Assembly (NCBI GenBank): GCA_036504735.1 | Contig: DASXUQ010000009.1 | Location: 103,204-167,203, forward strand | DNA length: 64,000 nucleotides | Source: a bacterium | GTDB lineage: Bacteria; Electryoneota; RPQS01 | Direction of reading: 5' to 3' | In this document: in pieces, positions 1,737 to 56,696 of the stretch | Layout of the letters: each line of letters starts with the position of its first letter | How positions within the stretch are numbered: position 1 is the stretch's first letter | Position numbers and translations under genes: made by a program | The notes under the pieces: generated by a model | Database searches by the model: none | What the model was told of the DNA's origin: nothing | What the model saw: the letters and a program-made list of their open reading frames with translations, nothing else

Positions 1737-4700
1737 TCACGGCTCCCTATTTGTTTGATGCGGTTCAACTCTCGTCGGTGGGGCTGACTGAGAACGGAGT
1801 GCCTGCTCTCTCTGCCGATTCGTCCGGACCGCACGGACTCTGAAGAAGGCCTTCGCGGGTAGGTTTGTTCGGCCCAATGCGTAATTGGAGGTGTCGGCTG
1901 ATCCAACAGTGCTCCAACCCACGAAGTCTGTGCTCATTTCAATCACATAGGAAATATCGCCGATAGGATTCCCGGAAGTATCCGTGAGCACCGGAGACCA
2001 GTCAAGTCTCACAGAATCAGGCTGCATTGTGACCACAACATCATTCACGGCACGCGGTGCAGCAACGAAAAGAACCGTCCATGTTGCCGCTGATGACATG
2101 ACTCCGCCGTGCCCATCCGTTGCGCTTACAAGGACATTGTGTATACCGGTGTCCGACAGCGCGGGGGTGAACTGGATCCACCCCGTTGAAGGTTCGACGT
2201 CAAACATGGCCGCATTGTCCGTGAACATCAGGGTATCCAAATCGATGTCATATGCTCCGACCGTCCACTCGAACATCTCGCCGACCAAGACGGTTGTGTC
2301 GGGAAGCGGATCAATTTCCGGCGAGGTGTTCGGAGTAATCGCGCTCACAGGCGCAGAATAAACCGAGCGCCCTGCCGAGTTCCAACTTCCTGCACGATAT
2401 TGGTAGGCGCGATGTCCTCGAACTGTTGAATCCATAAGGGAGACCGTGTTTGCAGGCACCGCGCCAATGTCCAAGAACGGTGCGGATTCTCCGTCCTGAC
2501 GTTGAATCACAAAACCCGATTCGTTCTGGGAGACGTCCGTCCAGTTGATTTGCACAACCGTGCTGGACTGAATCGCGGCCGTCACGCTTTGTGGAGCGCT
2601 CGGCGTGGTTTGGCTGGTTGTACTGAAATACCAGAGAGGACCTGAAGTTTGCGCCCCTTGGTTGTCTATAGCCGTCACTCTCCAGAAAATAAAGCGGCTA
2701 TTCTGCAGGCCCGACACGGCCTTAAACGTGTCAACGAGGGCGGTATCGATAACGGGAGGTACGGACGATGTCCCGAACTGCAAGCGATAATGTACCTGAT
2801 CTCCCGGGTCTTCATCGCCGCCGGAGTACCGGAGTGTCAAATCAAGTGGTTGATTGGTCGTCCCATTAAGAGGATGGGGCCGGGCCGGTACCCGTGGCGG
2901 TGTATTTCCCGTAACCACGACGACTTCATTGGAGCTTGGGGACAGATGCACGCCGTTGGATGCGTACACTCGATAAATGTGCCGTGTATTCGGGGGCAGA
3001 TTATCTAGCGTCAGCCCCGAAGAGTCCACCGACGTGACGCCGGCGATTACCCAAAGGGAATCTGAGCGGTCCTCGACCACAGTCATTACTGCCGAAGTTG
3101 GGTGGTTGCGCCAGGCTAGCCTGATTTGACTCGTGCCAAGCGGCCATCCCCTCAGGCTATCCGGTCCAGCGAGGACAGATGCCATAGTGAATTTCCAAAT
3201 AGGCCCCAGCACTGTATGATACGGATCATGGACTTCGATGCGCCAAAAATACGTTGTCCCTTCCGGAATCCCCTGTGACGCCCATGATGTGCTGTCTGTC
3301 GGGCCAGCCACATGCGTCAGGTTGATCGAGTCTGTGCCTGCCCAGACGTGGTACGACAAGTGATCAGCATCCGGATCTGTTCCCTGCCATGAAAGGATGG
3401 CCGGTGCCATCACATTAGAGGAGGCGTGCACGGGGACCGGCGCAAACGGCGGCAGGGGAGCCGCATTGGCTGGCATGATCGTCAGATAGGTCTGAGAGCT
3501 GTCTGTCACTTCGTTCCCTTGCCGGTCGCGTACTCGCACCACCACACGTGCGTTCGGGCTGGGCGCGCCCGTCGCGGTCCATAACAGGACAAAAGGAGTG
3601 TGTGCCCCCGCCGTCAGTATCTCGGGATCCGAAGAAGGAGTTCGCCGCAATAGTACATCGCATGACAGGGAATCTACCGGCGTGTAGTTGTCCGATGCTG
3701 TCCAACGGATGGTGTCGGCTTGTCCAATCACCCAATGCCCGCCTCCGTCTGGCGCCAGGAATTCTACCGTTGGCGCGCTGAGGTCGTGAATAGCAAACAC
3801 CGTTGGCGAAAGCGCCGTTCCGGTATTTCCGCCTGTATCGTGAACGATCAGCTTCATCAGGCAGGAATCGCTGCTTACGGCAGGCACAATCCAGCTTTGA
3901 GAACCTGTGTTGGCGGCCGAAGCCGCTAACAAAGTGAAGTTCCGACCCGAATTGGTCGAAAGGTAAATGTCCACTCCGGCGATGCCGATGTTGTCGGACG
4001 CTGTCCAACGCACTGTATCGGTGCATCCCATGGCTTTGATCTCGCCTCCAGTCGGGGCAAGCAATGACACCTGCGGTGGAGTGAAATCGCTGCTCAGATG
4101 GGCGGCCGAGAACTTCAGACAGTTCTCCACGGGATCGTTGTAGGCAAGATACGCAGAGTCGTCTGGCGTAATCACATACCCCAGCCTGGTACCCACGTTG
4201 CTGTTAGCCGTGAGTGATACGGCTGGACCCCACGTTACGTTATCACGGCGTCTCCATGTGAGGCGATCATTCTGTAAGAGGCTGGGCCACCCTCGGCTGT
4301 CCAGGGCAAGTGGCCCGTAGTAGATGGTGCCGGGCAGAGGTTCGATACTACCCCAGATTCCGCCCGTGCGTACACGGTATTGTGCCTGATCACCTCCCAG
4401 ACTCCGTGTACATACAAGATGTTCGGCACTATCCGCTGTGATGAGATAGTCAAAGAGATAGCCTCCGTCCACATAATAACCGGATGCCATACCGGGAATA
4501 AACGCAGCGCTTGTCCATAGCCCGCCGATGCGTGAGACCGTCGCCAACCCGTGGCCGGCAGTGGTAGAGTCCGGCGATTGATATGCAAAAAGTATCTTTG
4601 GTGATTGGCCGAGCATCTGGATCCTGACGCCGGCAACACTGGGGAATGCCCCTACTTGCTCAGTCGCCCCCCATGTTCCGCCTGACCACCGGGCTGCGCC

Positions 4701-7700
4701 TACTCGCCCCGTGGCATAGCCGGAGACGCCCCATGCGGCCCAAACATCTCCGGATGCCGTAGCTACGGCTTGTACATAATTCAGAGCAGGTTGACTGTCC
4801 AGTGAAACGGGGGCTTGCCAGCTGCTGCCGTCAAAATACCGAGCGCGGACATAGCGCATCGAATGATTGTAGTCGTTGTAGTCATAAACTACCATCGGAT
4901 GCCCGGGACTTGGTAGCACAAGAGTAGGAGAGTCACCAAGCGAATCCAGAGTGGTTTCAGAGCTCCAGTTCCCCGCCGGGCTTCGCTTCAAGTAGCGCAG
5001 CGTATAACCAGTGCCACGAGTGTATACCAGGTGCAGTGTGCCGTCGGTATCCCGCGCCATGGCTACTCGCGAGACACCACCCACCCCGCTTGCGAGGACA
5101 GCGCTCGGTGACCAGGGAGAAGGAAACTGAGTCGAGTTTGGAAGAATCCGGAACGTTCCATCGCTCCAGTCAGCCGCCTGCCCCCCGTGCCCGTCAATCG
5201 AGATATGGACTGCTATCGAGTCACCGGATGCGCTCCCCGGAACCGTCCATTGGTAACTGGTAGCCGGTGGCAGAACCAGTGAGGCAATGGTCATGTACTG
5301 TGGCGAGCCGACACCGGTATTGCTGTAATGGAGACTTGCCGATACCCAGTTCTGCGCCGTCCATTGAAGGGTATGGGTTTCTCCTACACGCCACACCTCA
5401 CCACCGTTCGGGGACAGGATCGTCACCGAGGGATTCGCAAAGTAAAGAACATGAACGCTATCGGATACCAGTGATGCGGAGTCTCCTGACACATCAATGA
5501 CAACCACCTTCAGACGTCCGGCGTCCGTCGTGTCTGCAACTGCTGGCGTCCAATCAAAGTGCAGCGACACGTCGTCATTGTAGGGTGGGGGTGTTTCTTC
5601 CCATGGACGGACAGTATGCCACGTTATTCCATTGTCCCGGCTGAAATCCCAGCGGAATCGTGCGATACCGGCCTGGTCAGACGCTTGCCCGCTCGGATGA
5701 TATGTCTGTCCGGCCTGAAACCACAGGGGCGAGTATCCCGGCATGTGTCCCCAGGACCAATAGGGATTCCCTTCAAACGTCACTAGCGGAAGATTTGTAT
5801 CCACCCAATTCACTTCATCAAGGGCGCGATTGTTCGTCAGCACCGGCTCTACCACCCCTTGAACATCGACAACGGCAATCAGGTAGCTGGTGCCAACGGT
5901 CACTTCTGGTAATCTGACCGTCTGGCTGACCACCACTGATTGTCCTATGGCCAGCGCAGGAAATACCGTCCAGCGCGGGTATAAGGCGGTACCGTTGGAT
6001 GCGGAATCCTGCGACCAGTACCAATAGACGGAACCGCCGGGCGCATCAAAATTACCGATGTTTCTGACCGTGACGGACATCGTGATACTGTCTCTGCGGC
6101 CGAACGTGCCGGTGTAGGAACAGTTGCTGGCTTGATAGTCTGGGAACTCATAGGCGGTGGTGAAACTCCACAGCGGGCTGGTCGCTATTGTTCCGGAGCC
6201 GTACGGATCCCAAGCCTTGACCTGCCAATAATATGTGCTGCCTCCCGAAAGACTATCCATGACGGCATGCGTGGTCGCGTCGCCGAACGGGCCCGTCGGG
6301 TAGAGTTCATTTGCAGACACGCCAAACCATGGCTGATACTGCAGCGCATCATTATCCGGATCAGATCCTGTCCAACTCAACACCACATGGGACCGCGAGA
6401 ACCCGGTCGCGGCATGCGCAGGTGAAGGCTGCGATGGTGACCAGGGCGGATGATTGACATGCCATCCAAAGTCAATGACATTGGACCATCCACTCTCGCC
6501 ATTGTTGTTAACCGCCTTTACGCGGAACCAGAAGTCGCCGTTGGGATGGTTGTAGAATGTGTATTCTGAGGCGCTCGTGGTCACCTGTGCCGGCGAAGAA
6601 AACGACGCGTTGTCATCCTCTTCCAGAACGTAATAGCTGACGTTGTTTGCGTTGCTCCAGTCAATAGTGTAATCAGGGTTCAGGCTGTAGAAACCGGGAT
6701 CGTTCAATTGGGGCACACCGGGACTTCCAGGAGTCCCGGTGATCATGATCTCCGTGGTGTAGGCGACATTCAGGTTGCCGGCGCCATCCTCTGCTACAAG
6801 CCGTATGGAAACCGCACCATTGAGCGTGTCTGGAACGGTCCAATCGTATGAGCCATTCACCTCTGTAGTCGCCACAAAGGGCGACAGATTGGCCATGGTC
6901 CTCCAGAACTGGGATGCCAGGCTCGACACTTGTAAAAACACACGGCGGAGCGTTCCGTTATCGCGGGCTGAAAACGGAACCGCAAGCATCTGATGAGGCT
7001 CAGCCTGGGCGTTCGCGCATACCATCGCAACCGGCGGGATATCGTCGCCATTGCAGGCTGGTGGAGCCTGAATCAATGCCTCTGTTATGACTTCGCCCTG
7101 TTCGTCAAAGCAACCCTGTCCCCATTCGATTTCCGATTGAGTGGCCTGAATCGCACTGGACCTCCGGTAGCCCATGGCGTCATAGACCGCGTCCGATTCG
7201 AACTGCCTCAACTTGCCGTGCTCCACGGCATACTTGTTGTGGGTCGGCGATTCCAGCAACGCTCCGTCCCTGAAGGAAATGCTGCCGCCCCATGGCAGAG
7301 ACGCGAGCGCGCAGCCCGGCTGCACGACTTGAGCAGAACCCCAATCATAGCCCCAGGAGCGTGCAATCGCCGGCGATGCCACGTTAAGCCGGCTCCCGTT
7401 CCTGGCCAGATAATGGTTGTTAAAGTTGTCTCCGGCGATGGTGAAGAAGGCGTCAAAAGCATCCAAGCTCACATCCGCACCGATTCCGCATCCCGATGCG
7501 CCACTTGTGTACGCCTCATACTCCGCCGTCGAAATGGTCACGATCTGGCAAGTTGCATAGCGATTGCCATTGAACACATCCATGTTGGGAATGTGGCGCA
7601 GGTGCGTACCTTCGATCACATAAATATCTGGCGAGGCCGCCTGCTTCACCAGTGTTCCGCTCGGATGCCAGGCAACTCGACCTTTCAGGTTATCCCATAA

Positions 7701-12596: not shown

Positions 12597-12995
12597 TGAA
12601 TTGGGCCTCTGTGTTACGCCAAATGCACATTATACGAGCGTACTGAGGGGAGCAGCATCAGACCGGAGTGCCAAAGCTCTTTACGTAGCCGTATTGCGGA
12701 CCACAACCAAAAGGACTGCGCGTTCGCAAACAAATAAGCGAGCCCTGCCACTGAATAGCGGAAGACTCGCTCGTCTGAAGGTGCTTGTCGGGATGAATCC
12801 TCGGTAAACCGGCATCTAATACATTCTAAGGTACTACTTCTTCAGCATGTTGTCAAGGTTTTCTATGGTCTGCAGCACTTCTGTTTGCATTCAGTATCTG
12901 CGGAAGCTTTTCTCTTCATAGGTTCTTGTCACTCGCAACTGCGCTTCCAAATCTCCTGTGCAGTAGACGACGAGTACTTTTCGCACGTCCGACTT

Positions 12996-30210: not shown

Positions 30211-30862
30211 AGTGTATCCTGCGATTCCTATCGGTCAAGTTTCGAACAGATAGCGTGAAGATCTGAAGGCCGTGCTTGTGCCAGATCCGTGATAGCACAC
30301 AATTGGGAAGGTGAATCACTCTGAGAATGATATCGGCCAATGAAGATGAAAGGAGATAATGTGATGTATTTCGTGACAAACACAAAAAGAGCGAACCATT
30401 CTGCCTATTGAAACAGGGGCTTCGCTCGTCTAAGGTGCGCGTCGGGAGAACCCCCGGCCATCGTGAAAGATGCTTTCAAGTTAGTAATTTATCAGTAAGG
30501 TGTCAATTTCCCCATTTCATGAATCACTAGGATTTGATTAACTTATGTTGTTGATTAATTATATCTTCCAAAGTTATTTCAACACATGTTCAGATGTTCA
30601 TGGTTTGAGGGGAGGAGTTGTTGCTGCAGGAAGCGTTGCACAAGAACCGTAGAGCGCATTGTGCTATCGAATTTTTCACTTAGAGATCTGTAGAAAGTAC
30701 TTCACCTTTTGACGAACATTCCTCAGTCGGTATGAACGACAGGCTCGGTATTATCACTCTACGAAGCCTGCGGCTCTCAAACCAAGCTAAAGCAAAGGCC
30801 CTCGGACTACTCACTTTGGGGCCCACGCTTCAGGTGTGCGGCGCATTGCTCGCAACAGATAA

Positions 30863-31972
30863 TCAGGTTTCTTCTCCAATCGGTATCTCCAGCCGTCGGG
30901 CTTGCGCCTGAAGTTGTCCCGGAAGCAGATTGGTGTATCGTTGCGTTTGGAGGATGGAAGCATGTCCGAGCCACTGTTGAACCACGCGAATGTCGATGCC
31001 GGATGCCAATGCGTTTGTCGCGTACGTGTGCCTGAATAAATGCATACCCGTCATATGATCGCCCTTCGCAATCCTCACTCCTTCCTTGCGCTCTATCCGC
31101 CTTAGGCAGCTTATCCAGGCGTTGCGATTGTTGCTTCGCGGTCCGCCCGAACGTCCCGGAAATACAAAAGGGCTTTCGCCCCTTCGTCTGTTCTTCAACC
31201 GATGAAACAACGCGATTGCCGCTGGACAGAGTGGCACCGCTCGGTCTCGTCGGTTCTTTGTAAGGTGAACCTCATTGCTGCGAATCTTGATATGCTCGCC
31301 GCCCGGTGTCAGCACAACGTCTTTCCACTGCAGGTGCCTGGCTTCCCCATCTCGCATTCCTGTGTACAACAGTGCCTTGTAGAAATCGGCAGATCCCTTA
31401 TTTGCATGCTTGAAGATGAGTGCCAACTCCATCGGGGTATAGACCTCAACGGAATGGATTGGTACACGTTGCCGGCCAATTTGGGTAGCTGGACTGTGGG
31501 TTAGATACTCCCGATCAACCGCAAATCTGAAGTAACGCTGGATTATGTTTAACTCGTCGTTCCAACTCTTCGGAGACAGCGTTTTGCTTCGCTCTTGCAG
31601 ATGAGCTTCAATATGGCTCGTTCCAATCCGCGCCAGGTTGTTGAACTTGTGACTCTGCAGGTAAAGCATGAACGGCTTGAGTTGCTGATGCATCCGCTTT
31701 GCCTGGCTTTTGGATTTCAGCAAGATCACCGCCCGCTTGAATTCTTCATATACTCGATAGTAGTCCACAAAGCTTTGCGGCAGTCCTGCCACCCCTCGTT
31801 CAAGATTGCTTTCTATCTCCGCCTTCATCTGCTCAGCGATCATCTGGCTTGTCACTTTCAGTGACCGCTGGACCTGCCTCCCATCCTGTATGTAGCTAAT
31901 CCACCAAACCTTCCCTCGTCGCTTTCCTCCAGTCTTAGAGTCAGGCAATAGTCGCTTGAAAAGTGATGCCAT
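30863..31972 (-). CDS. int: Tyrosine recombinase / phage-type integrase
   Basis: 369 aa. Catalytic box residues (R...HLFRHTYAT...LGHASILQTQRYT). Confidence 0.85.
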   Translation of the reverse strand: MASLFKRLLPDSKTGGKRRGKVWWISYIQDGRQVQRSLKVTSQMIAEQMKAEIESNLERGVAGLPQSFVDYYRVYEEFKRAVILLKSKSQAKRMHQQLKPFMLYLQSHKFNNLARIGTSHIEAHLQERSKTLSPKSWNDELNIIQRYFRFAVDREYLTHSPATQIGRQRVPIHSVEVYTPMELALIFKHANKGSADFYKALLYTGMRDGEARHLQWKDVVLTPGGEHIKIRSNEVHLTKNRRDRAVPLCPAAIALFHRLKNRRRGESPFVFPGRSGGPRSNNRNAWISCLRRIERKEGVRIAKGDHMTGMHLFRHTYATNALASGIDIRVVQQWLGHASILQTQRYTNLLPGQLQAQARRLEIPIGEET

Positions 31973-49706: not shown

Positions 49707-49807
49707 AGCTGGTACAAGCCCACGACCATCGAAATGAAATCCTGATATGGCCCGGAGATCAGATTCCGAATCATACCCATCCGCGAAAATATTTTTCATT
49801 TACCCCC

Positions 49808-49836
49808 TTGACATTTTCTGCAAAAGTGTGTATATT
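49808..49836 (+). promoter_or_regulatory. Near-consensus sigma70 promoter TTGACA-17 nt-TATATT
   Basis: TTGACA at 49808-49813, 17-nt spacer, TATATT at 49831-49836. Followed by direct repeats ATGAAATAGAaTTCCC (49873, 49929) and palindromes. Confidence 0.5.
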
Positions 49837-50177
49837 TGTATATCGGGGAATGATTCTATCGTTACTTCCGATCCCATATATGAAATAGAATTCCCTTTCG
49901 GAATTCACCAATTACGACCGACGCAAAGATGAAATAGATTCCCTACGGGCGAATGCCCGTTTGGGAACGTATCTTCTTTTGTCGGTTTTTTGTTGCCGAC
50001 AAAATTCACCGTAATAGTTTCGCGGGAACGGTGCCCGCTGCCAAGATATAGAATGAAAATGGCCCCAGTTTCGGGGAAGAAAATACGATGTAGAAAGCTA
50101 TTTCGCTATCGAATTTTGTCCCCAAGCCAGGTCGCCGACTTGGCTTTTTGTTAATCAAAAATAGGAAAGGATCGACA

Positions 50178-50639: not shown

Positions 50640-50936
50640 ATGACGACTACAAAGACGAAAGACTTCGGACTGGCTGCTATGCTGGTCGCGAAGAACACAA
50701 AGATGACCGGCTATACAACCGATGAATTAGGAAATCTGTGGTTTGAGTTTGCCACAGATGAGAACGTTGCGGCACTGGAAGAAGGCTTTTACCGCAACAC
50801 CGTGGATGTTCGCATCCAAGATTTTCTGGCAGCACAAAAGATGCTGAAAGCCTTGATCTTTGAAACTAAGAGAAATATGTATGAAAATAGAATCAGAAGA
50901 TTTAACCCAACCAACACTAACACAATTGCCGTCTAA
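50640..50936 (+). CDS. Hypothetical protein (98 aa)
   Basis: ORF starting 13 nt after the previous stop, with RBS GGAAACTAAGATG. Confidence 0.4.
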   Translation: MTTTKTKDFGLAAMLVAKNTKMTGYTTDELGNLWFEFATDENVAALEEGFYRNTVDVRIQDFLAAQKMLKALIFETKRNMYENRIRRFNPTNTNTIAV

Positions 50937-53466
50937 GAACGGCACTCGTCCAGAAAGCTCAGTCCGCGAAAACGGATTCACCATTTCGCTGTCAATTTCG
51001 AAGGACAAGATTCGCACGAAGGCACAGGGAGAAACAGTCACCGAGTACATCGAGTGCGATCTGTTATCAAGCGACAAGGAAGACATTCAGGAACTCTTCA
51101 CAACAAGAAACTACTCTACCAACGTTTGGGATGGCCCAAGGCATGGCGTAAACTACGTAGGCATGACCGGCGTATCGCTGGATTTTGACAGCGGCATGAC
51201 TATTGAAGAAGCAAAAGCAGCATTTGCTGACTACAACTACGTTCTTCATACCAGTACTTCCCATCAAGTGGACAAAGATGGATTTGTCGCGGACAGATTT
51301 CGCGTGATTTTGCCTTTCATGCCTAACGGTCTGCGCTTCACGACGCAGGCTGACTGCAAGAGAGTCTATCAGAAGCTGCTTACAAAGTATCCGCAAATGG
51401 ATGCCGCGTGCACCGACGCGGGAAGACAGTTCTTTCCTTTCTGTGATGACAAGGGCGCCAAGTTCGAGCTTTACACAAATGACACCGGTTGTTACTTCGA
51501 TGTGGACATCAGCGATATGCCGGATGTCTTCGTACCAGAAGCTTTTGAAGAACGGGAATGGGACGGACATCTTCGGCCACGAAACGAGCTTGAACGCATT
51601 CTGAAGTTCTGCCCTTTCGTGAAGTGGATGGACCACCATATTGGCAATCCAAAGACAGAGATGCATGAACCACTAAGATTTGCGTTGATTTCGAATCTAT
51701 GCTGGTATGAAGGCGGGCGCGAGGAGATTCATCGCATCCTCAGCCGTGATTGTAGGCCGGGGAAGTACTATCCAGGTTTGGTGGATGAGAAGATCGACCG
51801 AATTCTCGAAGCCTACAATCCCCAGACTTACGAATTGATTGTAAGGTTGGGATGGCCGGGACCGGCGCTATGCAAACCACTATCGCCTTCCGGATGGGGG
51901 CGGGTAGGCACGAAGGCCGCACGGGAATTCGTGCAGATTGACTGGGATGACAACGTGATAGTGGACTTGAACGGTGCGTGGGTCGTTGTTGGTCTGGAAG
52001 ATCTGAAGGCAGACCTACTACCTGTGAACAAGAAGATGGCGGCGATCTGCCCCGTCTGTGGGGCCGAAGCTGTAGTGAAGCTCGACACGTTCCACTTTGC
52101 GAACATATGGTGCGAACAATGCCAGAAGGCATTCTATGAAGCCGCGCTTTCGCCTGGGATGTTCACTTACAAGAACAAACTCCTACGAGTAGAACGACGC
52201 GCCGGTCAGTTCATCAGCATGGAAGTCCTGGAGGAAGAATCTTTCCGTACAGGAGATGAATTCAAGTTCGCTAAGAAGAAGCTTCTGACGGATCCAAACA
52301 GAAGATTTCTGGATGATGGCTTTCAGATCCGAAGAATCGGAAGCGCGGACTTCGGGAAGCTGGTGTATGAATTCCGCATGCAGGAAAACGCATTACTGTT
52401 CAAATACCCAGCCATTCCGGTCAGAATCAAAGACAACGCCTTCATCAACAACTTTCTTGACCCGATGTTCGGCCAGTATGTAGACTTCATCAAGGACTGG
52501 ATGGCGGTGTTCTGCTACACAAACTATCAGACCCTTCCGGTGATCGTACTTACCAGCGAACGCAGTTGCGGAAAGGGCACTTTTGCTAACATGCTATCGG
52601 CGATCTTTCCGACATTGGTCGGACAGTGGGACGGTGTGAAAGAGTCATTCAACGATCAGTACAAGAACAAGCTGCTGTTCGTGGACGAAAACCCGAACGC
52701 CGAGAAACCTATGCAGTACACGGAAATCAAGAAGATCACGGGCAACCGCCTGCTGCGTATAAACGAGAAGTATACACCGGCCTATTATGCCCCCAATAAC
52801 ATCAATATTATTATTGCAACTAATGATCCACGGCCCATGTTCTTGAAGGCCAGGGAAGAACCGAAATCTGAAAACACTAACAACTTCTTTATTCACCGCG
52901 TGCCGGATGTTAATCCGGACAGGATTGACAAGACCCTGGGCAACAAATTGGAGGACCGAATCGGCTACTATGTCCGAACCGAACTGAAGGAGCGTTACCA
53001 GAGGCTCCTGGCGGAAGGCAATACGAATAACCGTTACACTCTGGCAGCACCAATCACTCCGCTTGCACGTGATCTGTTCGCTTCAAGCAAATCAACGGTT
53101 GAAATCGAAGCAGATGAACTTGCGCGCTATCTTGTGTGCGGCGTGGAAATGCCAGATCCCTATGGAGACGGTTATTCTTCGAAGATCAAGTTCACGGCAA
53201 CCGAGTACAACGGCGCCAAGTACGTGCAGCTTGCAGAGATCAGACTGCTGATCTCCCGGCTACGCTTCAAGGGAAGCTCGAATCCGAAGGCATACATCAG
53301 TGTTCTGCAGGATTTGGGCGTGCTATCATTTGACGCATCGGCACGCAGCAACGTACGACATCTTGGCTACAAGATTCTGCGTGATCAAAAGTACTATGAT
53401 CCACAGCAGCCTTCAATCACCGGCACGCCAGGCGTCAGCAGCAATGGAAATGTGGTTTTCGGGTGA
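50860..53466 (+). CDS. Bifunctional primase-polymerase / P4-type (SF3, D5-like) replicative helicase; N-terminal start uncertain
   Basis: 868 aa. C-terminal P4-family NTPase motifs (Walker A SERSCGKGTF, Walker B LLFVDEN). N-terminal prim-pol-like region. Confidence 0.7.
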   Translation: MKLREICMKIESEDLTQPTLTQLPSKNGTRPESSVRENGFTISLSISKDKIRTKAQGETVTEYIECDLLSSDKEDIQELFTTRNYSTNVWDGPRHGVNYVGMTGVSLDFDSGMTIEEAKAAFADYNYVLHTSTSHQVDKDGFVADRFRVILPFMPNGLRFTTQADCKRVYQKLLTKYPQMDAACTDAGRQFFPFCDDKGAKFELYTNDTGCYFDVDISDMPDVFVPEAFEEREWDGHLRPRNELERILKFCPFVKWMDHHIGNPKTEMHEPLRFALISNLCWYEGGREEIHRILSRDCRPGKYYPGLVDEKIDRILEAYNPQTYELIVRLGWPGPALCKPLSPSGWGRVGTKAAREFVQIDWDDNVIVDLNGAWVVVGLEDLKADLLPVNKKMAAICPVCGAEAVVKLDTFHFANIWCEQCQKAFYEAALSPGMFTYKNKLLRVERRAGQFISMEVLEEESFRTGDEFKFAKKKLLTDPNRRFLDDGFQIRRIGSADFGKLVYEFRMQENALLFKYPAIPVRIKDNAFINNFLDPMFGQYVDFIKDWMAVFCYTNYQTLPVIVLTSERSCGKGTFANMLSAIFPTLVGQWDGVKESFNDQYKNKLLFVDENPNAEKPMQYTEIKKITGNRLLRINEKYTPAYYAPNNINIIIATNDPRPMFLKAREEPKSENTNNFFIHRVPDVNPDRIDKTLGNKLEDRIGYYVRTELKERYQRLLAEGNTNNRYTLAAPITPLARDLFASSKSTVEIEADELARYLVCGVEMPDPYGDGYSSKIKFTATEYNGAKYVQLAEIRLLISRLRFKGSSNPKAYISVLQDLGVLSFDASARSNVRHLGYKILRDQKYYDPQQPSITGTPGVSSNGNVVFG

Positions 53467-53920
53467 GAGAAGTGATAGAAGTAGTAATAGTAGTAGTGGA
53501 AACATCACCCCTTCGGGGTGAGCAATAACAACAACTTAGAAAACCAAAGTGATGAAAGTGATGGAAGTGATACTGATTTTCGAAAGAGTTTTCCAGGATT
53601 TTGCTTAGCACGACCAGCGGGTTACCATAGAAAGACTTTTCGAAATCCTTCTCACTTTCATCACTACTATCACCAGTACTTCAAAGACAATATTCTTAAG
53701 GGGCCGAAAGGCCCTTTATCTTTGAGACCCGAAAATCACTTCTTGCTTCGGTGATAACTGTGGACAAGAAGAAAAAGTAGTATTAGTGGTGTTATTGGCC
53801 CTTCGGGCCGAATTCATCCGGAAAAACGAACCGATCCTGAATTTCGATTCCCGCTTTTCGATTCCCGAAAACGGGCCGTCGCTACTTCTACTACTATTAC
53901 TACTACTTCTTTTCTTGATA
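53467..53920. other. Highly structured iteron-rich non-coding region immediately downstream of the primase-helicase gene (candidate origin of replication and/or structured ncRNA)
   Basis: About 20-nt inverted repeat arms at 53488-53508 and 53885-53906. A nested inverted repeat at about 53550-53590 and 53636-53680. Tandem GTGAT(G/A)GAA and AGTAGTA units. Three tetraloop hairpins (CCCC-ttcg-GGGG, GGGCC-gaaa-GGCCC, GGCCC-ttcg-GGGCC). Duplicated TTTCGATTCCCG. Confidence 0.5.
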
Positions 53921-54416
53921 GGAATTCTGGACTAAGACGCTTTCAAGTCCAGATCGAAGCTGGGGGGGGCAGCACGATGCGTACGGGTGAGCTGATTGCT
54001 CCGCATAGTATCAAATGTTATGCGTTGACAGACCCCGCAACAACGATTCAACATTCGATCTACGGAGATCGCTTCACTTCCCGATGCTCTTTGAGTCGAG
54101 AATCTGAGCGGAGGTTCGACATACCCCCCACCACTCAACAAAGCATGCTTACCACAAAGTACTGTAGTGGAGATAATTGTGTTCGCATCTCCTAACAACG
54201 GGCGGCTCGCGATTCTGCGACGCCCACCAAGAGGAAACGGCAATTGACCTGGGAAAAGCCCCCGTCCAAAATTTTTTTGGGATTTTTTGAAAGTTGACCA
54301 TTAGGGCTCGCATTCACTCCCTGATCGGGATCTGCTGGGCTGTTGCATATGGTAAAGAAGAAGCCGATGATTGTTCACCGGCTTCATTCTACTATGCGTG
54401 TCGCGAGTTGATGCTG

Positions 54417-56696
54417 CTATTCACGCTGTCCTGCTGAGCCGTGCTGTTGCAGCGCAGATCCCGCTTCGACATCCGCTGTCACCTGATAGAAATACGCTGG
54501 CTGAGTATTCAGGATGAAGGCGTGCACGTACGAGTTGGTTGTAGCGTATCCGAAGGGCACAAACGGACCGGAGGCCGTCATCGAGCCATAAATCACGTAG
54601 ATTACGTTTTCGACCGGCTGTCCGCTGATCGAGTGGGTAACAGGCGCCCAATCCAGTCTAATTCCGTTCGTAGGGCCTTTCTGAACAACCAGGCTGTCGA
54701 CTGAAGGCAAAATCACCTGGGCCTCGCCAAACAGCGGAATGCGAATGATGCTATCTATTTGCTGAGTGGCCATTATCACAATCGTATCTGGGAAACTGCC
54801 TGCACGCGTTGGAGTAAACGTCACGGGCAACTGATGCCCTGAATACGGCGCGACTACACCGTCGAAACCGTTGGTGCCAACAGTAAAGGCAGTCGAGGCG
54901 CAGCTCACTCCGGTGACTGGGATTGCCTGTGCTGTCGGATTGAACATCGTCAGTTGCATGGTTGAGTCAACGCCCAGGTCAATAAGCCCGAAATTGAGCG
55001 CGACGGGACTGACCATCAATGTGGTATGGATGAAGGGAACAGCCCCCATATCAGCCCGAGTTGAATCCGGACCACGTGGAGAATTCGGATCTCCGGTATC
55101 AATGCAAGGAGAGGCTGACTGCAAGTGGAAGTTGCCGTTTACTGGATCAATCAGCAACGGATCAGCATCGATGTTCCCAAGGCCTTGGTAGTTTCCGGCG
55201 ACATCCGACCATGACACGGTTACCGCCGAATTCCAGAGGTGGATTTCTGGGGAAGTACTGGCTTGGTTATTCCACAGAATGCAGTTACGAAGCTCAGCAC
55301 TGCTGTTGCCAGTCAGGCAAAGCGCGCCTCCTTCCGCGCTCGTGAGGTTCTCGCTGAAGGTACAGTTGACAAACAGCCCACCACAGCCCTCTTCAAACTG
55401 TGCTCCCGCTCCACACCAAACCGAGCTATTACCGGCTATCACGCAGTGATCAAACGTTGGAACTGCGTACAGATAATCGTGCACGCCGCCGCCATATCCA
55501 TAAGTTGCTGCGTTGTTCAGAATCCGGCAGCGCTGAAAGAGCGGCATCGAATACAAACGACAAATAATTCCGCCGCCGAAAGCCGCCGAATTACCGAAGA
55601 TATCGCAGTCACGAATGGTCGGAGAGGAGTGATCGATGCACACAATTCCACCGCCATCACTGTCGGCCACGTTGTTCCGGATGCTCGAGTACTCGATTAA
55701 TGGAGAACACTGCGATAAGAGGATGCCTCCGGCGCTGTTGTCATTATCTCCTCCGCTTGCATGACCATTCTCGACCACGCAGTAGGCCAGATGCCCATCA
55801 GCGCTCGTACCCTGAAAGCGAATTCCCCACCACTTCAATTCTTCAGCCGGATAAGCTCGCGTGAACACAATCGAGTCCTGCTCCGTTCCAGTCGCCTGGA
55901 GGTTGCCGTACACATTGAATTTGTAGTGCCCGGTAAACAACACACGTACGCCGGGTCTGATTTCAAGAGTCTGACCCAAGGGCACGGTTATCTCACACGT
56001 AACATAGTATGGCGATCCTGTCGAGTCCCAGACGCCGGAAACATCACCGCATACATTGGTGCCTTGAAGGGGATCAACGCGAAAGTAGTCGAAGTCTGCG
56101 GGAATATTCGGGCCATCTGGTGGCCAATTGTAAGCATCGAAGCCATACTTTATCGGTGCCTCTGAGCCTGAAGTTCTATGCCATGTGGCCATATAGGTCC
56201 ACGCGAGAGAGTCGGGAGATGCAAACGCTGAATAGGCGGTGCCCCGTTTTTCGATTCGAAGGAAACAAGGATTCCACGATTGCCCTATTGCAGCGGTTTC
56301 GAGTTGCCCGTCAGTCCAGAAGTGAGTTCGAATTCCTCCATCCGGTTGACGCACAACATTGATATTGTCCGTGCCATTGAACCACACATAGAGACCGGCT
56401 CCACCGTATGCCCCAGTCTCTATCTCAAGTTTCGTCTCAATTCTGAAGCAACTATCCGTGATCACCCGTTGCAAATAATTCTCACCGCCGACATTGCTGG
56501 TCCACATCCTTAGCCACCATGGCCTTTCTGTCAGACTCCACCCGCTCGTGTCTTCATTGATCCAAGTCCAACAGGAATCCAGCGACGGGGAATCAAAATT
56601 CTCGGCAAACGGAAGCGAAGCAGGTGAGCAGATCTGGGCAAAGCAGATTACGGTCGCCGTCAGTAACGCTGAAGAAAGTACTATCAGGCTTCTCAT
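54417..56696 (-). CDS. Secreted right-handed beta-helix (pectin-lyase-fold) repeat protein
   Basis: 759 aa with a signal peptide. Repeated GG..NS/GN.A.. beta-helix turns (NSAAFGGGIIC, NAATYGYGGGV, NSSVWCGAGA). Confidence 0.6.
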   Translation of the reverse strand: MRSLIVLSSALLTATVICFAQICSPASLPFAENFDSPSLDSCWTWINEDTSGWSLTERPWWLRMWTSNVGGENYLQRVITDSCFRIETKLEIETGAYGGAGLYVWFNGTDNINVVRQPDGGIRTHFWTDGQLETAAIGQSWNPCFLRIEKRGTAYSAFASPDSLAWTYMATWHRTSGSEAPIKYGFDAYNWPPDGPNIPADFDYFRVDPLQGTNVCGDVSGVWDSTGSPYYVTCEITVPLGQTLEIRPGVRVLFTGHYKFNVYGNLQATGTEQDSIVFTRAYPAEELKWWGIRFQGTSADGHLAYCVVENGHASGGDNDNSAGGILLSQCSPLIEYSSIRNNVADSDGGGIVCIDHSSPTIRDCDIFGNSAAFGGGIICRLYSMPLFQRCRILNNAATYGYGGGVHDYLYAVPTFDHCVIAGNSSVWCGAGAQFEEGCGGLFVNCTFSENLTSAEGGALCLTGNSSAELRNCILWNNQASTSPEIHLWNSAVTVSWSDVAGNYQGLGNIDADPLLIDPVNGNFHLQSASPCIDTGDPNSPRGPDSTRADMGAVPFIHTTLMVSPVALNFGLIDLGVDSTMQLTMFNPTAQAIPVTGVSCASTAFTVGTNGFDGVVAPYSGHQLPVTFTPTRAGSFPDTIVIMATQQIDSIIRIPLFGEAQVILPSVDSLVVQKGPTNGIRLDWAPVTHSISGQPVENVIYVIYGSMTASGPFVPFGYATTNSYVHAFILNTQPAYFYQVTADVEAGSALQQHGSAGQRE

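Follow-up and report, generated by a model that had tools for sequence, protein, structure and literature searches.

In SaPI elements, the origin of replication is located immediately downstream of rep and contains 6-12 iterons, with at least two in opposed orientation on each side of an AT-rich centre; the C-terminal winged helix of Rep binds these iterons and the helicase loads itself (PMC9371898). In the Sulfolobus plasmid pRN1, the origin corresponds to a stem-loop of ca. 100 bp that lies 3' of the gene encoding an AEP-SF3-winged-helix protein (ORF904) and for which the integrity of the stem matters. Within this class of replicons, which has also been proposed for the Bordetella phage BIP-1, conservation concerns the structure and not the sequence, and comparable stem-loops are found 3' of such genes in phages (PMC4234260). 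Short trinucleotide motifs have been described in the basal unwinding system of DnaA, in which the DnaA-trio has the consensus 3'-GAT-5' (that is 5'-TAG-3') and which is recognised by at least three NAN trios located within 16 bp of a DnaA box and in the right order (PMC8287927). Finally, the record of P4 shows the crr (4291-4590), with its type-1 repeats in direct and inverted orientation, just downstream of the alpha gene (4636-6969) and places the annotated origin ca. 4.5 kb away. The region analysed here directly follows a gene labelled in the initial annotation as a P4-type primase-helicase, and had been proposed to be either an origin of replication or a large structured RNA.

General features of the island and of its primase-helicase

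The whole stretch of DNA that was analysed (64 kb, hereafter the window) has a lower G+C content at ca. 13-54 kb than in its flanks. The island, whose host is an uncultured KSB1-type bacterium, carries an integrase (30863-31972) together with many defence or conflict systems, namely AbiEi/AbiEii, GAP1/double-GTPase, ORC-CDC6-like plus HD-CE, Vsr and Dcm. A replication module composed of small ORFs, a DUF5659-like ORF and the primase-helicase gene occupies one end of the island. No packaging or morphogenesis family was detected among the large ORFs scanned in the island, the tRNA/tmRNA scan returned none, and the small ORFs in and around the region had no Pfam match. In the phage collection, the DNA of the region had no match and the protein search gave just a 48-residue match in Vibrio phages. 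In IMG/VR, a single-protein search was negative and a profile search retrieved two relatives only, with 29% identity, L033 having a downstream ORF and not an origin-like region. Two further candidates were discarded: the conserved T-rich motif at 54270-54288 as an att site, since none of the 13-mers of 53900-54450 has another copy in the window, and GATTCCC as an operator common to 49.9 kb and 53.85 kb, the enrichment of which was not convincing.

The primase-helicase ORF is intact, with 868 codons, and an identical protein is annotated in a metagenome-assembled contig of 435 kb. Its sole Pfam match is DUF5906, a SF3 helicase family (8.7e-13); no Pfam primase domain was found above threshold, so that the prim-pol assignment is based on the fold and on PHROG evidence. 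PHROG DNA primase families match residues 92-194, and three motifs, LDFD, HTSxSH and DRFRVILPF, are invariant. When the PDB was searched with a profile, the C-terminal helicase region of the NrS-1 phage primase was matched, with no sequence-level match to SaPI Reps. Using the AlphaFold model (pLDDT 81.5), Foldseek aligned the full length of the protein to MPXV E5, including its primase domain, and to ASFV PrimPol (E 2.5e-11 to 1e-8), and gave a TM of ca. 0.5 to NrS-1 CTR and to 7ola; structural neighbours include SaPI5 PriRep (7ola), PriRep1-dsDNA (7pds) and SaPIbov Rep, and 8tch was matched as well. The protein thus models as an N-terminal AEP of the D5/E5-like type followed by a SF3 helicase and a C-terminal winged helix. 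With P4 alpha, it shares only a weak helicase segment of 96 residues (25% identity, pairwise E 0.001). The "P4-type" label therefore holds loosely, in the sense of a SF3 primase-helicase, but not for the primase part, which is D5/E5-like.

Organisation of the region downstream of the primase-helicase gene

The stop codon of the primase-helicase is followed by a gene-free stretch (53467-54416), the next ORF starting at 54417 on the - strand. No gene was called in this stretch in two independent assemblies, both of which match the window exactly along the 10.6 kb that were compared, and the iteron region is also devoid of gene calls in three related loci (L001, L002 and L005). The small ORF noticed earlier at 53518-53754 is present (78 aa, GTG start). 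The features identified in the region are listed in Table 1, together with the offsets of the iteron groups in related loci.

Table 1. Features of the candidate origin region (positions in the window) and layout of the iteron groups in related loci (offsets from the stop codon of the primase-helicase gene)
Feature	Position	Strand	Basis or remark
Primase-helicase gene, putative initiator	50860..53466	+	AEP-type primase, Zn-finger, SF3 helicase (DUF5906), C-terminal winged helix (modelled)
First iteron pair, GTGAGAGAA GTGATAGAA	53463..53481	+	sequence, repeat search
Trinucleotide array A1, (TAG/AAG/TAA)x7, left long-range arm	53470..53497	+	repeat search
Inverted iteron (ATCAC, +38) inside GC palindrome CACCCC-TTC-GGGGTG	53503..53520	.	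sequence, fold
Left iteron array, 3 x 9 bp, GTGATGAAA GTGATGGAA GTGATACTG	53549..53575	+	repeat search
Core spacer: T-rich TTTTCGAAAGAGTTTTCC, GC-richer centre, mirrored A-rich GAAAGACTTTTCGAAA	53576..53646	.	sequence, alignment
Right iteron array, 3 x 9 bp inverted, reading GTGATAGTA GTGATGAAA GTGAGAAGG on the - strand	53647..53674	-	repeat search
GC hairpin GGGCC-GAAA-GGCCC, then TTTATCTTT	53701..53724	+	sequence, fold; terminator-like by eye
Distal iteron pair ATCAC...GTGAT, +269/+285	53735..53755	.	GTGAT/ATCAC word count
Second module: array A2 (AAG AAG AAA AAG TAG TAT TAG), TGGTGTTATTGG, GC palindrome GGCCC-TTC-GGGCC	53767..53809	+	repeat search
Tandem TTTCGATTCCCG x2 (14-bp period), then hairpin CCCG-AAAA-CGGG	53842..53875	+	repeat search
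Array B, right long-range arm, (CTA/CTT/TTA)n on +, i.e. 11 NAG/NAA units on -	53882..53911	-	repeat search
Relatives: two direct iterons, stop codon often included	-3/+6		relatives' layout
Relatives: one inverted iteron	ca. +38		relatives' layout
Relatives: three direct iterons	+82/+91/+100		relatives' layout
Relatives: three inverted iterons	+189/+198/+207		relatives' layout
Relatives: further iteron copies	ca. +250 to +270		relatives' layout

In the window, the TGA stop codon of the primase-helicase gene (53464-53466) is itself the TGA core of the first iteron. The core spacer between the two opposed arrays is 50-67% AT with a GC-richer centre, so that a classic AT-rich unwinding element is not obvious at this position. 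The hairpin located after the right array resembles a terminator by eye and was left unflagged by a simple terminator scan. Further downstream, the second module represents a 41-nt direct repeat of 53477-53517 (71% identity); for the tandem TTTCGATTCCCG element, an equivalent was not recognised in the relatives. A conserved downstream element is still present in the window at 54138-54310.

The repeats reported in the initial annotation were recovered, with some corrections. Long-range complementary arms do exist, but the left one, GAAGTAGTAATAGTAGTAG, occurs at 53478-53496 and not at 53488-53508, and the right one had been quoted as CTACTACTATTACTACTTC, a string that is absent from the sequence, the actual arm at 53888-53909 being CTACTACTATTACTACTACTTC, which is longer by one ACT unit. 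In the repeat search, complementarity between the arms was 95% for 53477-53496 with 53888-53907 and 88% for 53477-53501 with 53886-53910. The nested inverted repeat was found again, with 53549-53591 pairing with 53631-53673 at 72% over 43 nt and with a core (53548-53561 and 53652-53665) that is 100% complementary; so were the tandem units, both as 9-nt GTGATnGAA and as 3-nt AGT/CTA runs, the duplicated TTTCGATTCCCG with copies at 53842 and 53856, and the G8 homopolymer at 53962-53969. Of the three hairpins said to be capped by tetraloops, GGGCC-GAAA-GGCCC (53701-53714) is clean, but the two described as "UUCG" are not of this kind: CACCCC-TTC-GGGGTG (53505-53519) and GGCCC-TTC-GGGCC (53797-53809) are odd-length perfect palindromes that have a 3-nt TTC loop in their longest stem and that the fold draws likewise.

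These repeats are real and non-random. The best inverted-repeat score of the region is 17, compared with 8.5 +/- 0.9 and a maximum of 11 in 200 dinucleotide shuffles, and the RNA fold has a z-score of -9.3 (+ strand) or -7.5 (- strand). The motif AGTAGTANTAGT, with at most one mismatch, has 10 matches in the 64-kb window where 0.27 is expected, 9 of the 10 being in the region, and GTGAT/ATCAC words occur 8 times in 300 bp for 0.84 expected. Within the window, clustering of the iteron and trinucleotide motifs is confined to this region: neither double-iteron matches nor the density of GTGAT revealed a second iteron cluster, and a search for a second iteron bank found no arrays upstream of the replication operon.

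Conservation of the layout in related loci

The comparison covered ca. 25 loci found in metagenome assemblies of KSB1, Calditrichota and Ignavibacteria type. Identity of their primase-helicases to that of the window ranges from 36 to 100%, and is 36-64% for the relatives encoded by distinct loci. In every locus for which enough downstream sequence is available, the gene is followed by a gene-poor stretch having a common layout (Table 1), so that the check proposed at the outset, namely looking at the region beside related primase genes, shows the arrangement to be kept. Exceptions are the 29%-identity relatives from IMG/VR and L021, in which no iterons were found in the sequence after the gene. 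Iterons at -3 and +6 from the stop codon also occur in L005, L015, L016, L018, L020 and L076, the inverted iteron is located at +37 to +43 in most loci, and the left array of the window, at +83/+92/+101, matches the position of its counterpart in the relatives. In an alignment of 20 loci, no column is invariant except those of the TGA core in the left iterons and of the TCA core in the right ones. The core spacer of the relatives contains a partly conserved CCAGAAAAGTTTT..GAAAA motif and is strongly AT-rich in L005, L019 and L031.

The iteron word itself varies between loci, yet it is identical in all four groups of a given locus. TGATG is found in the window and in L005, L009, L022, L027 and L035, TGACA/G in L004, L014-L020, L028, L031 and L037, TGAAGG in L002, L025 and L036, and TGGTAA or TGATAA in L001. 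Direct and inverted copies change in concert, and the distal copies lack a complementary partner. Because an RNA helix requires neither of these, they point to binding sites for one co-evolving protein, and the use of one word per locus likewise fits protein-binding sites better than a RNA helix. A simple residue-to-iteron code was not evident in the alignment of the C-terminal domains.

The primase-helicase gene and the iteron region stay linked despite differing cargo, which varies by locus and includes BREX, a SNF2 helicase, Thoeris, Cas (Cas3/Cas6) and PadR; in L009 and L017, the 3' end of the gene has been duplicated in tandem together with the iteron region. A small ORF follows the origin in five loci (L001, L002, L004, L025 and L036). 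A tblastn search of the window found no counterpart of this ORF, of which only a degenerate trace of the leader is visible.

Trinucleotide arrays flanking the iterons

In addition to the iterons, the window contains three (TAG/AAG/TAA)n arrays, with 7 units each at 53470-53497 and 53767-53787 and 11 at 53882-53911 (- strand). Complementarity between the long-range arms arises because each repeats a single trinucleotide unit and the two run in opposite directions. They fall within the least stable 1% of 30-bp duplex windows of the whole 64 kb (for A1, 53470-53499), array B (53882-53911) being the least stable duplex of the region. On its own strand, each array is followed by a short box, often GGTGTT-like, and then by a GC palindrome. 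Such arrays are limited to a small subclade comprising the window, L001, L002, L025 and L036, in which their sequence is unchanged although the iteron word differs. The second module also occurs in L001, L002 (3 copies), L025 and L036, and in the same four loci the equivalent of array B lies directly upstream of the small ORF. In L002, L025 and L036, one array lies within the core spacer, in the place of the AT-rich tract of other loci. A pattern scan of IMG/VR for the AGT module (AAGTAGTA-N3-6-TGGTGTTAT) gave 34 matches, all due to chance or coding sequence and none followed by a GC palindrome. We tentatively regard the arrays, which are proper to this subclade, as accessory origin modules that may serve as easily melted flanks or as single-strand loading or priming sites.

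The arrays could also be the mobile-element counterpart of the chromosomal DnaA-trio unwinding module, a reading that we consider unlikely. As in the DnaA basal unwinding system, 7-11 trinucleotides with a central A, mostly 5'-TAG-3', are arranged in arrays, and after each of these come, still on the same strand, a short spacer and then a GC-rich cluster. Unlike in that system, there is no conserved DnaA box and the initiator is a SF3 protein. One exact TTGTCCACA was considered as a DnaA box at 53759-53767, but it is located 5' of the array and not 3', and in the relatives no exact box was found, with 3 near-matches in 18.9 kb for ca. 6.6 expected. The arrays lie as mirror images on the two strands about the iteron core, and the short box after an array is GGTGTT-like or an iteron. 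If the analogy held, a protein anchored on the duplex would spread onto a single strand of trinucleotide periodicity and so open the origin. The spreading protein could be either the SF3 winged-helix initiator or the host DnaA, recruited without a canonical box. Unwinding of the trio type would then also be used by an initiator other than DnaA and by replicons of the plasmid or satellite type.

A predicted replication origin and alternative readings

Taken from the sequence comparisons, positions 53463-53755 probably correspond to the cis-acting replication origin of an integrated mobile island carrying defence genes and, at minimum, to a putative initiator-binding region required in cis for replication. 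The proposal made in the initial annotation of an origin adjoining its primase-helicase gene is thus backed by the comparative evidence from the relatives. From the architecture of the protein, we infer that the winged helix recognises the iterons. The protein encoded upstream would contact the 9-bp iterons, which here read GTGATnGAA, through its C-terminal winged helix, and the two opposed arrays of three iterons would set two helicase assemblies face to face, separated by a spacer of ca. 70 bp; the DNA would then melt, the helicase would load itself, and synthesis would be started in both directions by the primase of the protein itself.

The same region might instead act as RNA, either as a large structured ncRNA or as a structured 3' UTR of the primase-helicase mRNA on the + strand, with a role in, for instance, regulation, stabilisation or RNase III processing. 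The very low fold z-score of the + strand (-9.3) would fit such a role, and the scan flagged no terminator on this strand from the stop codon to 54300, making read-through transcription plausible. In addition, the GC hairpins next to the arrays stay palindromic while their sequence changes between loci (CACCCC/GGGGTG, GGCCC/GGGCC, GGGTCC/GGACCC, GTCCC/GGGAC and GGTACC/GGTACC), and in the relatives the right-hand ACT array is found just upstream of the small ORF, the GGAG of which lies in a hairpin loop. However, the - strand folds almost as well (z -7.5), and over 12 loci stability and G.U content do not consistently favour one strand. Mismatches in the arms of five loci amount to 3 G.T, 6 A.C and 13 others, with no wobble signature on either strand, and the complementarity of the arms comes from the opposite trinucleotide arrays and not from pair-by-pair compensation. 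The window has no Rfam match at the gathering score, and a search of 52800-54600 at E <= 10 returned snoR35 at chance level (E 8.2). The co-change of direct iteron copies and the existence of unpaired distal ones also speak against RNA, and the density of tetraloops, which had been put forward in its favour, is a weak argument since two of the three are triloop palindromes. The inverted iteron arrays and the several GC palindromes explain why either strand folds well, so that the structure belongs to the design of the DNA and not to that of a RNA. With neither a Rfam match, nor a strand asymmetry, nor an excess of G.U, we hold the RNA alternative to be very unlikely.

Alternatively, the region might bind the initiator while the start site is elsewhere, and would then represent an iteron bank for copy control (handcuffing) or autoregulation, a crr-like enhancer, or a partition or centromere-like site. 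In iteron plasmids, copy number is known to be controlled by banks of iterons that lie outside the origin. The initial annotation had cited P4 as a precedent for an origin just downstream of the primase gene, which is half right, as repeats are present there but the P4 record shows that it is crr, and not the annotated origin (ori1), that adjoins alpha downstream; by analogy with crr, the region could serve as an enhancer needed for replication and not as the start site itself. The core spacer of the window, which is not strongly AT-rich, agrees with such a role, but this spacer is strongly AT-rich in the three relatives cited above, neither a second iteron cluster in the window nor arrays upstream of the operon were detected, and opposed arrays around a spacer reproduce the layout of SaPI origins (PMC9371898). 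A site of this kind, distinct from the origin, therefore seems improbable. It is less plausible still that the island has become fixed in the chromosome and that the region is a non-functional remnant. The small ORF kept in five relatives is missing here except for the degenerate leader trace, so that the window copy could be decaying, but the 868-codon ORF is intact, all four iteron groups are at their canonical offsets with intact TGA cores, and the downstream element at 54138-54310 has been kept; decay of the region is accordingly the most doubtful of these readings.

As a predicted origin, the region is of a known kind, satellite- or plasmid-like, found in a new lineage. A full-text literature search did not find a description of the origin of this family, which is weak evidence of absence. 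A predicted cis-acting replication module is now defined for a seemingly undescribed family of integrative defence islands from little-studied lineages of the FCB group (KSB1, Calditrichota and Ignavibacteria-type), and the initiator gene together with ca. 300 bp of origin could underlie replicating vectors for organisms that lack genetic tools. The loci also offer a natural series of initiators and iterons (TGATG, TGACA, TGAAGG and TGGTAA) on one fixed scaffold, which suits the study of changes in winged-helix specificity and of the assembly of self-loading SF3 helicases. For annotation, an extreme predicted RNA structure beside a replication gene should be read first as the symmetry of an origin.

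Comparison with known replication systems

As in the SaPI/PICI systems (Rep and PriRep), the predicted origin adjoins the initiator-helicase gene downstream and contains opposed sets of iterons, here 3 + 3. The likeness extends to SaPI5, in which pri and rep are fused (PMC9371898), and to the structural matches with 7ola, 7pds and 8tch. Several differences were found. SaPI iterons are penta- or hexanucleotides, whereas those of the window are 9-bp units in a strict 9-bp tandem; the first iteron overlaps the stop codon and four groups are placed at fixed offsets; the centre is not clearly AT-rich in this copy, where the trinucleotide arrays on either side hold the least stable DNA; and the island carries defence systems as its cargo, no phage-satellite packaging genes being recognised among the large ORFs scanned in the island.

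With P4, the locus has in common a SF3 helicase-primase initiator and short direct and inverted repeats just downstream of its gene. P4 requires two regions, ori1 and crr, which are ca. 4.5 kb apart, whereas a single cluster is present here in 64 kb. The primase of P4 alpha is a Toprim/DnaG-like domain, while the fold neighbours of the present protein indicate that its primase part resembles archaeo-eukaryotic primases of the D5/E5 type.

With pRN1 ORF904, finally, the locus shares a large palindromic region placed directly 3' of its own gene, of which the structure is kept and the sequence is not, as well as the succession of an N-terminal prim-pol, a SF3 helicase and a C-terminal winged helix, which is modelled here. 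pRN1 is an archaeal plasmid having a single stem-loop of ca. 100 bp with no defined iterons, whereas four groups of 9-bp iterons and trinucleotide arrays are found here in a bacterial integrated island. By analogy, the pRN1 class is the best functional precedent for the predicted origin, and the origins of SaPI Rep/PriRep and of pRN1 ORF904 are, on the same grounds, better precedents than P4.

Sequences preceding and following the primase-helicase gene

Ahead of the replication operon, a strong sigma-70-like promoter was recognized by eye, and two direct repeats, AAATAGA(A)TTCCC, together with small hairpins lie downstream of it; this region (49800-49960) may serve as an operator or leader. 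The coordinates of this and other features are listed in the table below. The primase-helicase gene terminates in TGA, after which the same frame continues with TGA, TAG, TAG, TAA, TAG, TAG and TAG (53464-53500), so that the trinucleotide array found there also constitutes a battery of in-frame stops. With a one-in-three probability for any given frame, the placement of the array in the stop frame may be coincidental.

Additional features of the window and of related loci encoding homologous primase-helicases (L numbers)
Feature	Locus	Position	Remark
Imperfect direct repeat, ~80 nt	window	12730-12805; 30382-30458	core CTCGCTCGTCTAAGGTGCGCGTCGGGAGAACCCCCGG
Promoter TTGACA-17-TATATT	window	~49809-49837	ahead of replication operon
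AAATAGA(A)TTCCC repeats	window	49883; 49932	downstream of promoter
Conserved non-coding element, ~170 nt	window	54138-54310	downstream of origin
TTACCA-17-GATAAT	window	54149-54177	promoter scan
MKATTQYIKxLL-type small ORF	L001	8071-8283
	L002	8431-8625
	L004	4267-4491
	L025	from 4824
	L036	from 6460
Tandem duplication	L009	3160-4110	includes entire iteron region
	L017	1917-2600	includes entire iteron region

Small ORFs and a conserved element beyond the predicted origin

In close relatives, the predicted iteron-rich origin is followed on its 3' side by a conserved small ORF of 61-74 aa (MKATTQYIKxLL...MPDWAKAIRxHNNN), with a GGAG located in a hairpin loop immediately 5' of its ATG. The window has lost this ORF: it is missing from positions 53920-54140, where a degenerate trace of the leader is the sole remainder. 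In L015, L018 and L027, its position is occupied by a different small ORF family (MKT...MWLDHW...).

Further downstream, the conserved non-coding element displays an invariant AAAGCATGC followed by GGAGATAATTGTG and then by CTGCGACxCCCAC, as well as a hairpin of the GACCAGGG-AAAA-CCCTGGTC type that precedes AAAATTTTTTTGGGATTTTTTGAA and TTAGGGCTC. Counterparts occur at the equivalent relative position in L002, L025, L036, L027 and L028, and the promoter scan returned TTACCA-17-GATAAT inside the element. Possible identities for this stretch are a small RNA gene plus terminator, a terminator acting in both directions, or the end of the element.

Possible tandem islands and multiple predicted origins

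The two copies of the imperfect direct repeat, the second of which has an integrase gene ca. 400 bp away, may be att-like and mark two tandem islands. Two related loci, L009 and L017, carry a tandem duplication that covers the 3'-terminal part of the primase-helicase gene and the entire iteron region, resulting in two successive copies of the origin. Finally, a second island of the window's family (L075) was found on another contig (514-kb) of the same metagenome; it adjoins Thoeris genes, and its primase-helicase is 51% identical to that of the window. The iterons of this second island are ATGACA-type, and the occurrence of both islands in one sample indicates that two origin specificities coexist in that community.
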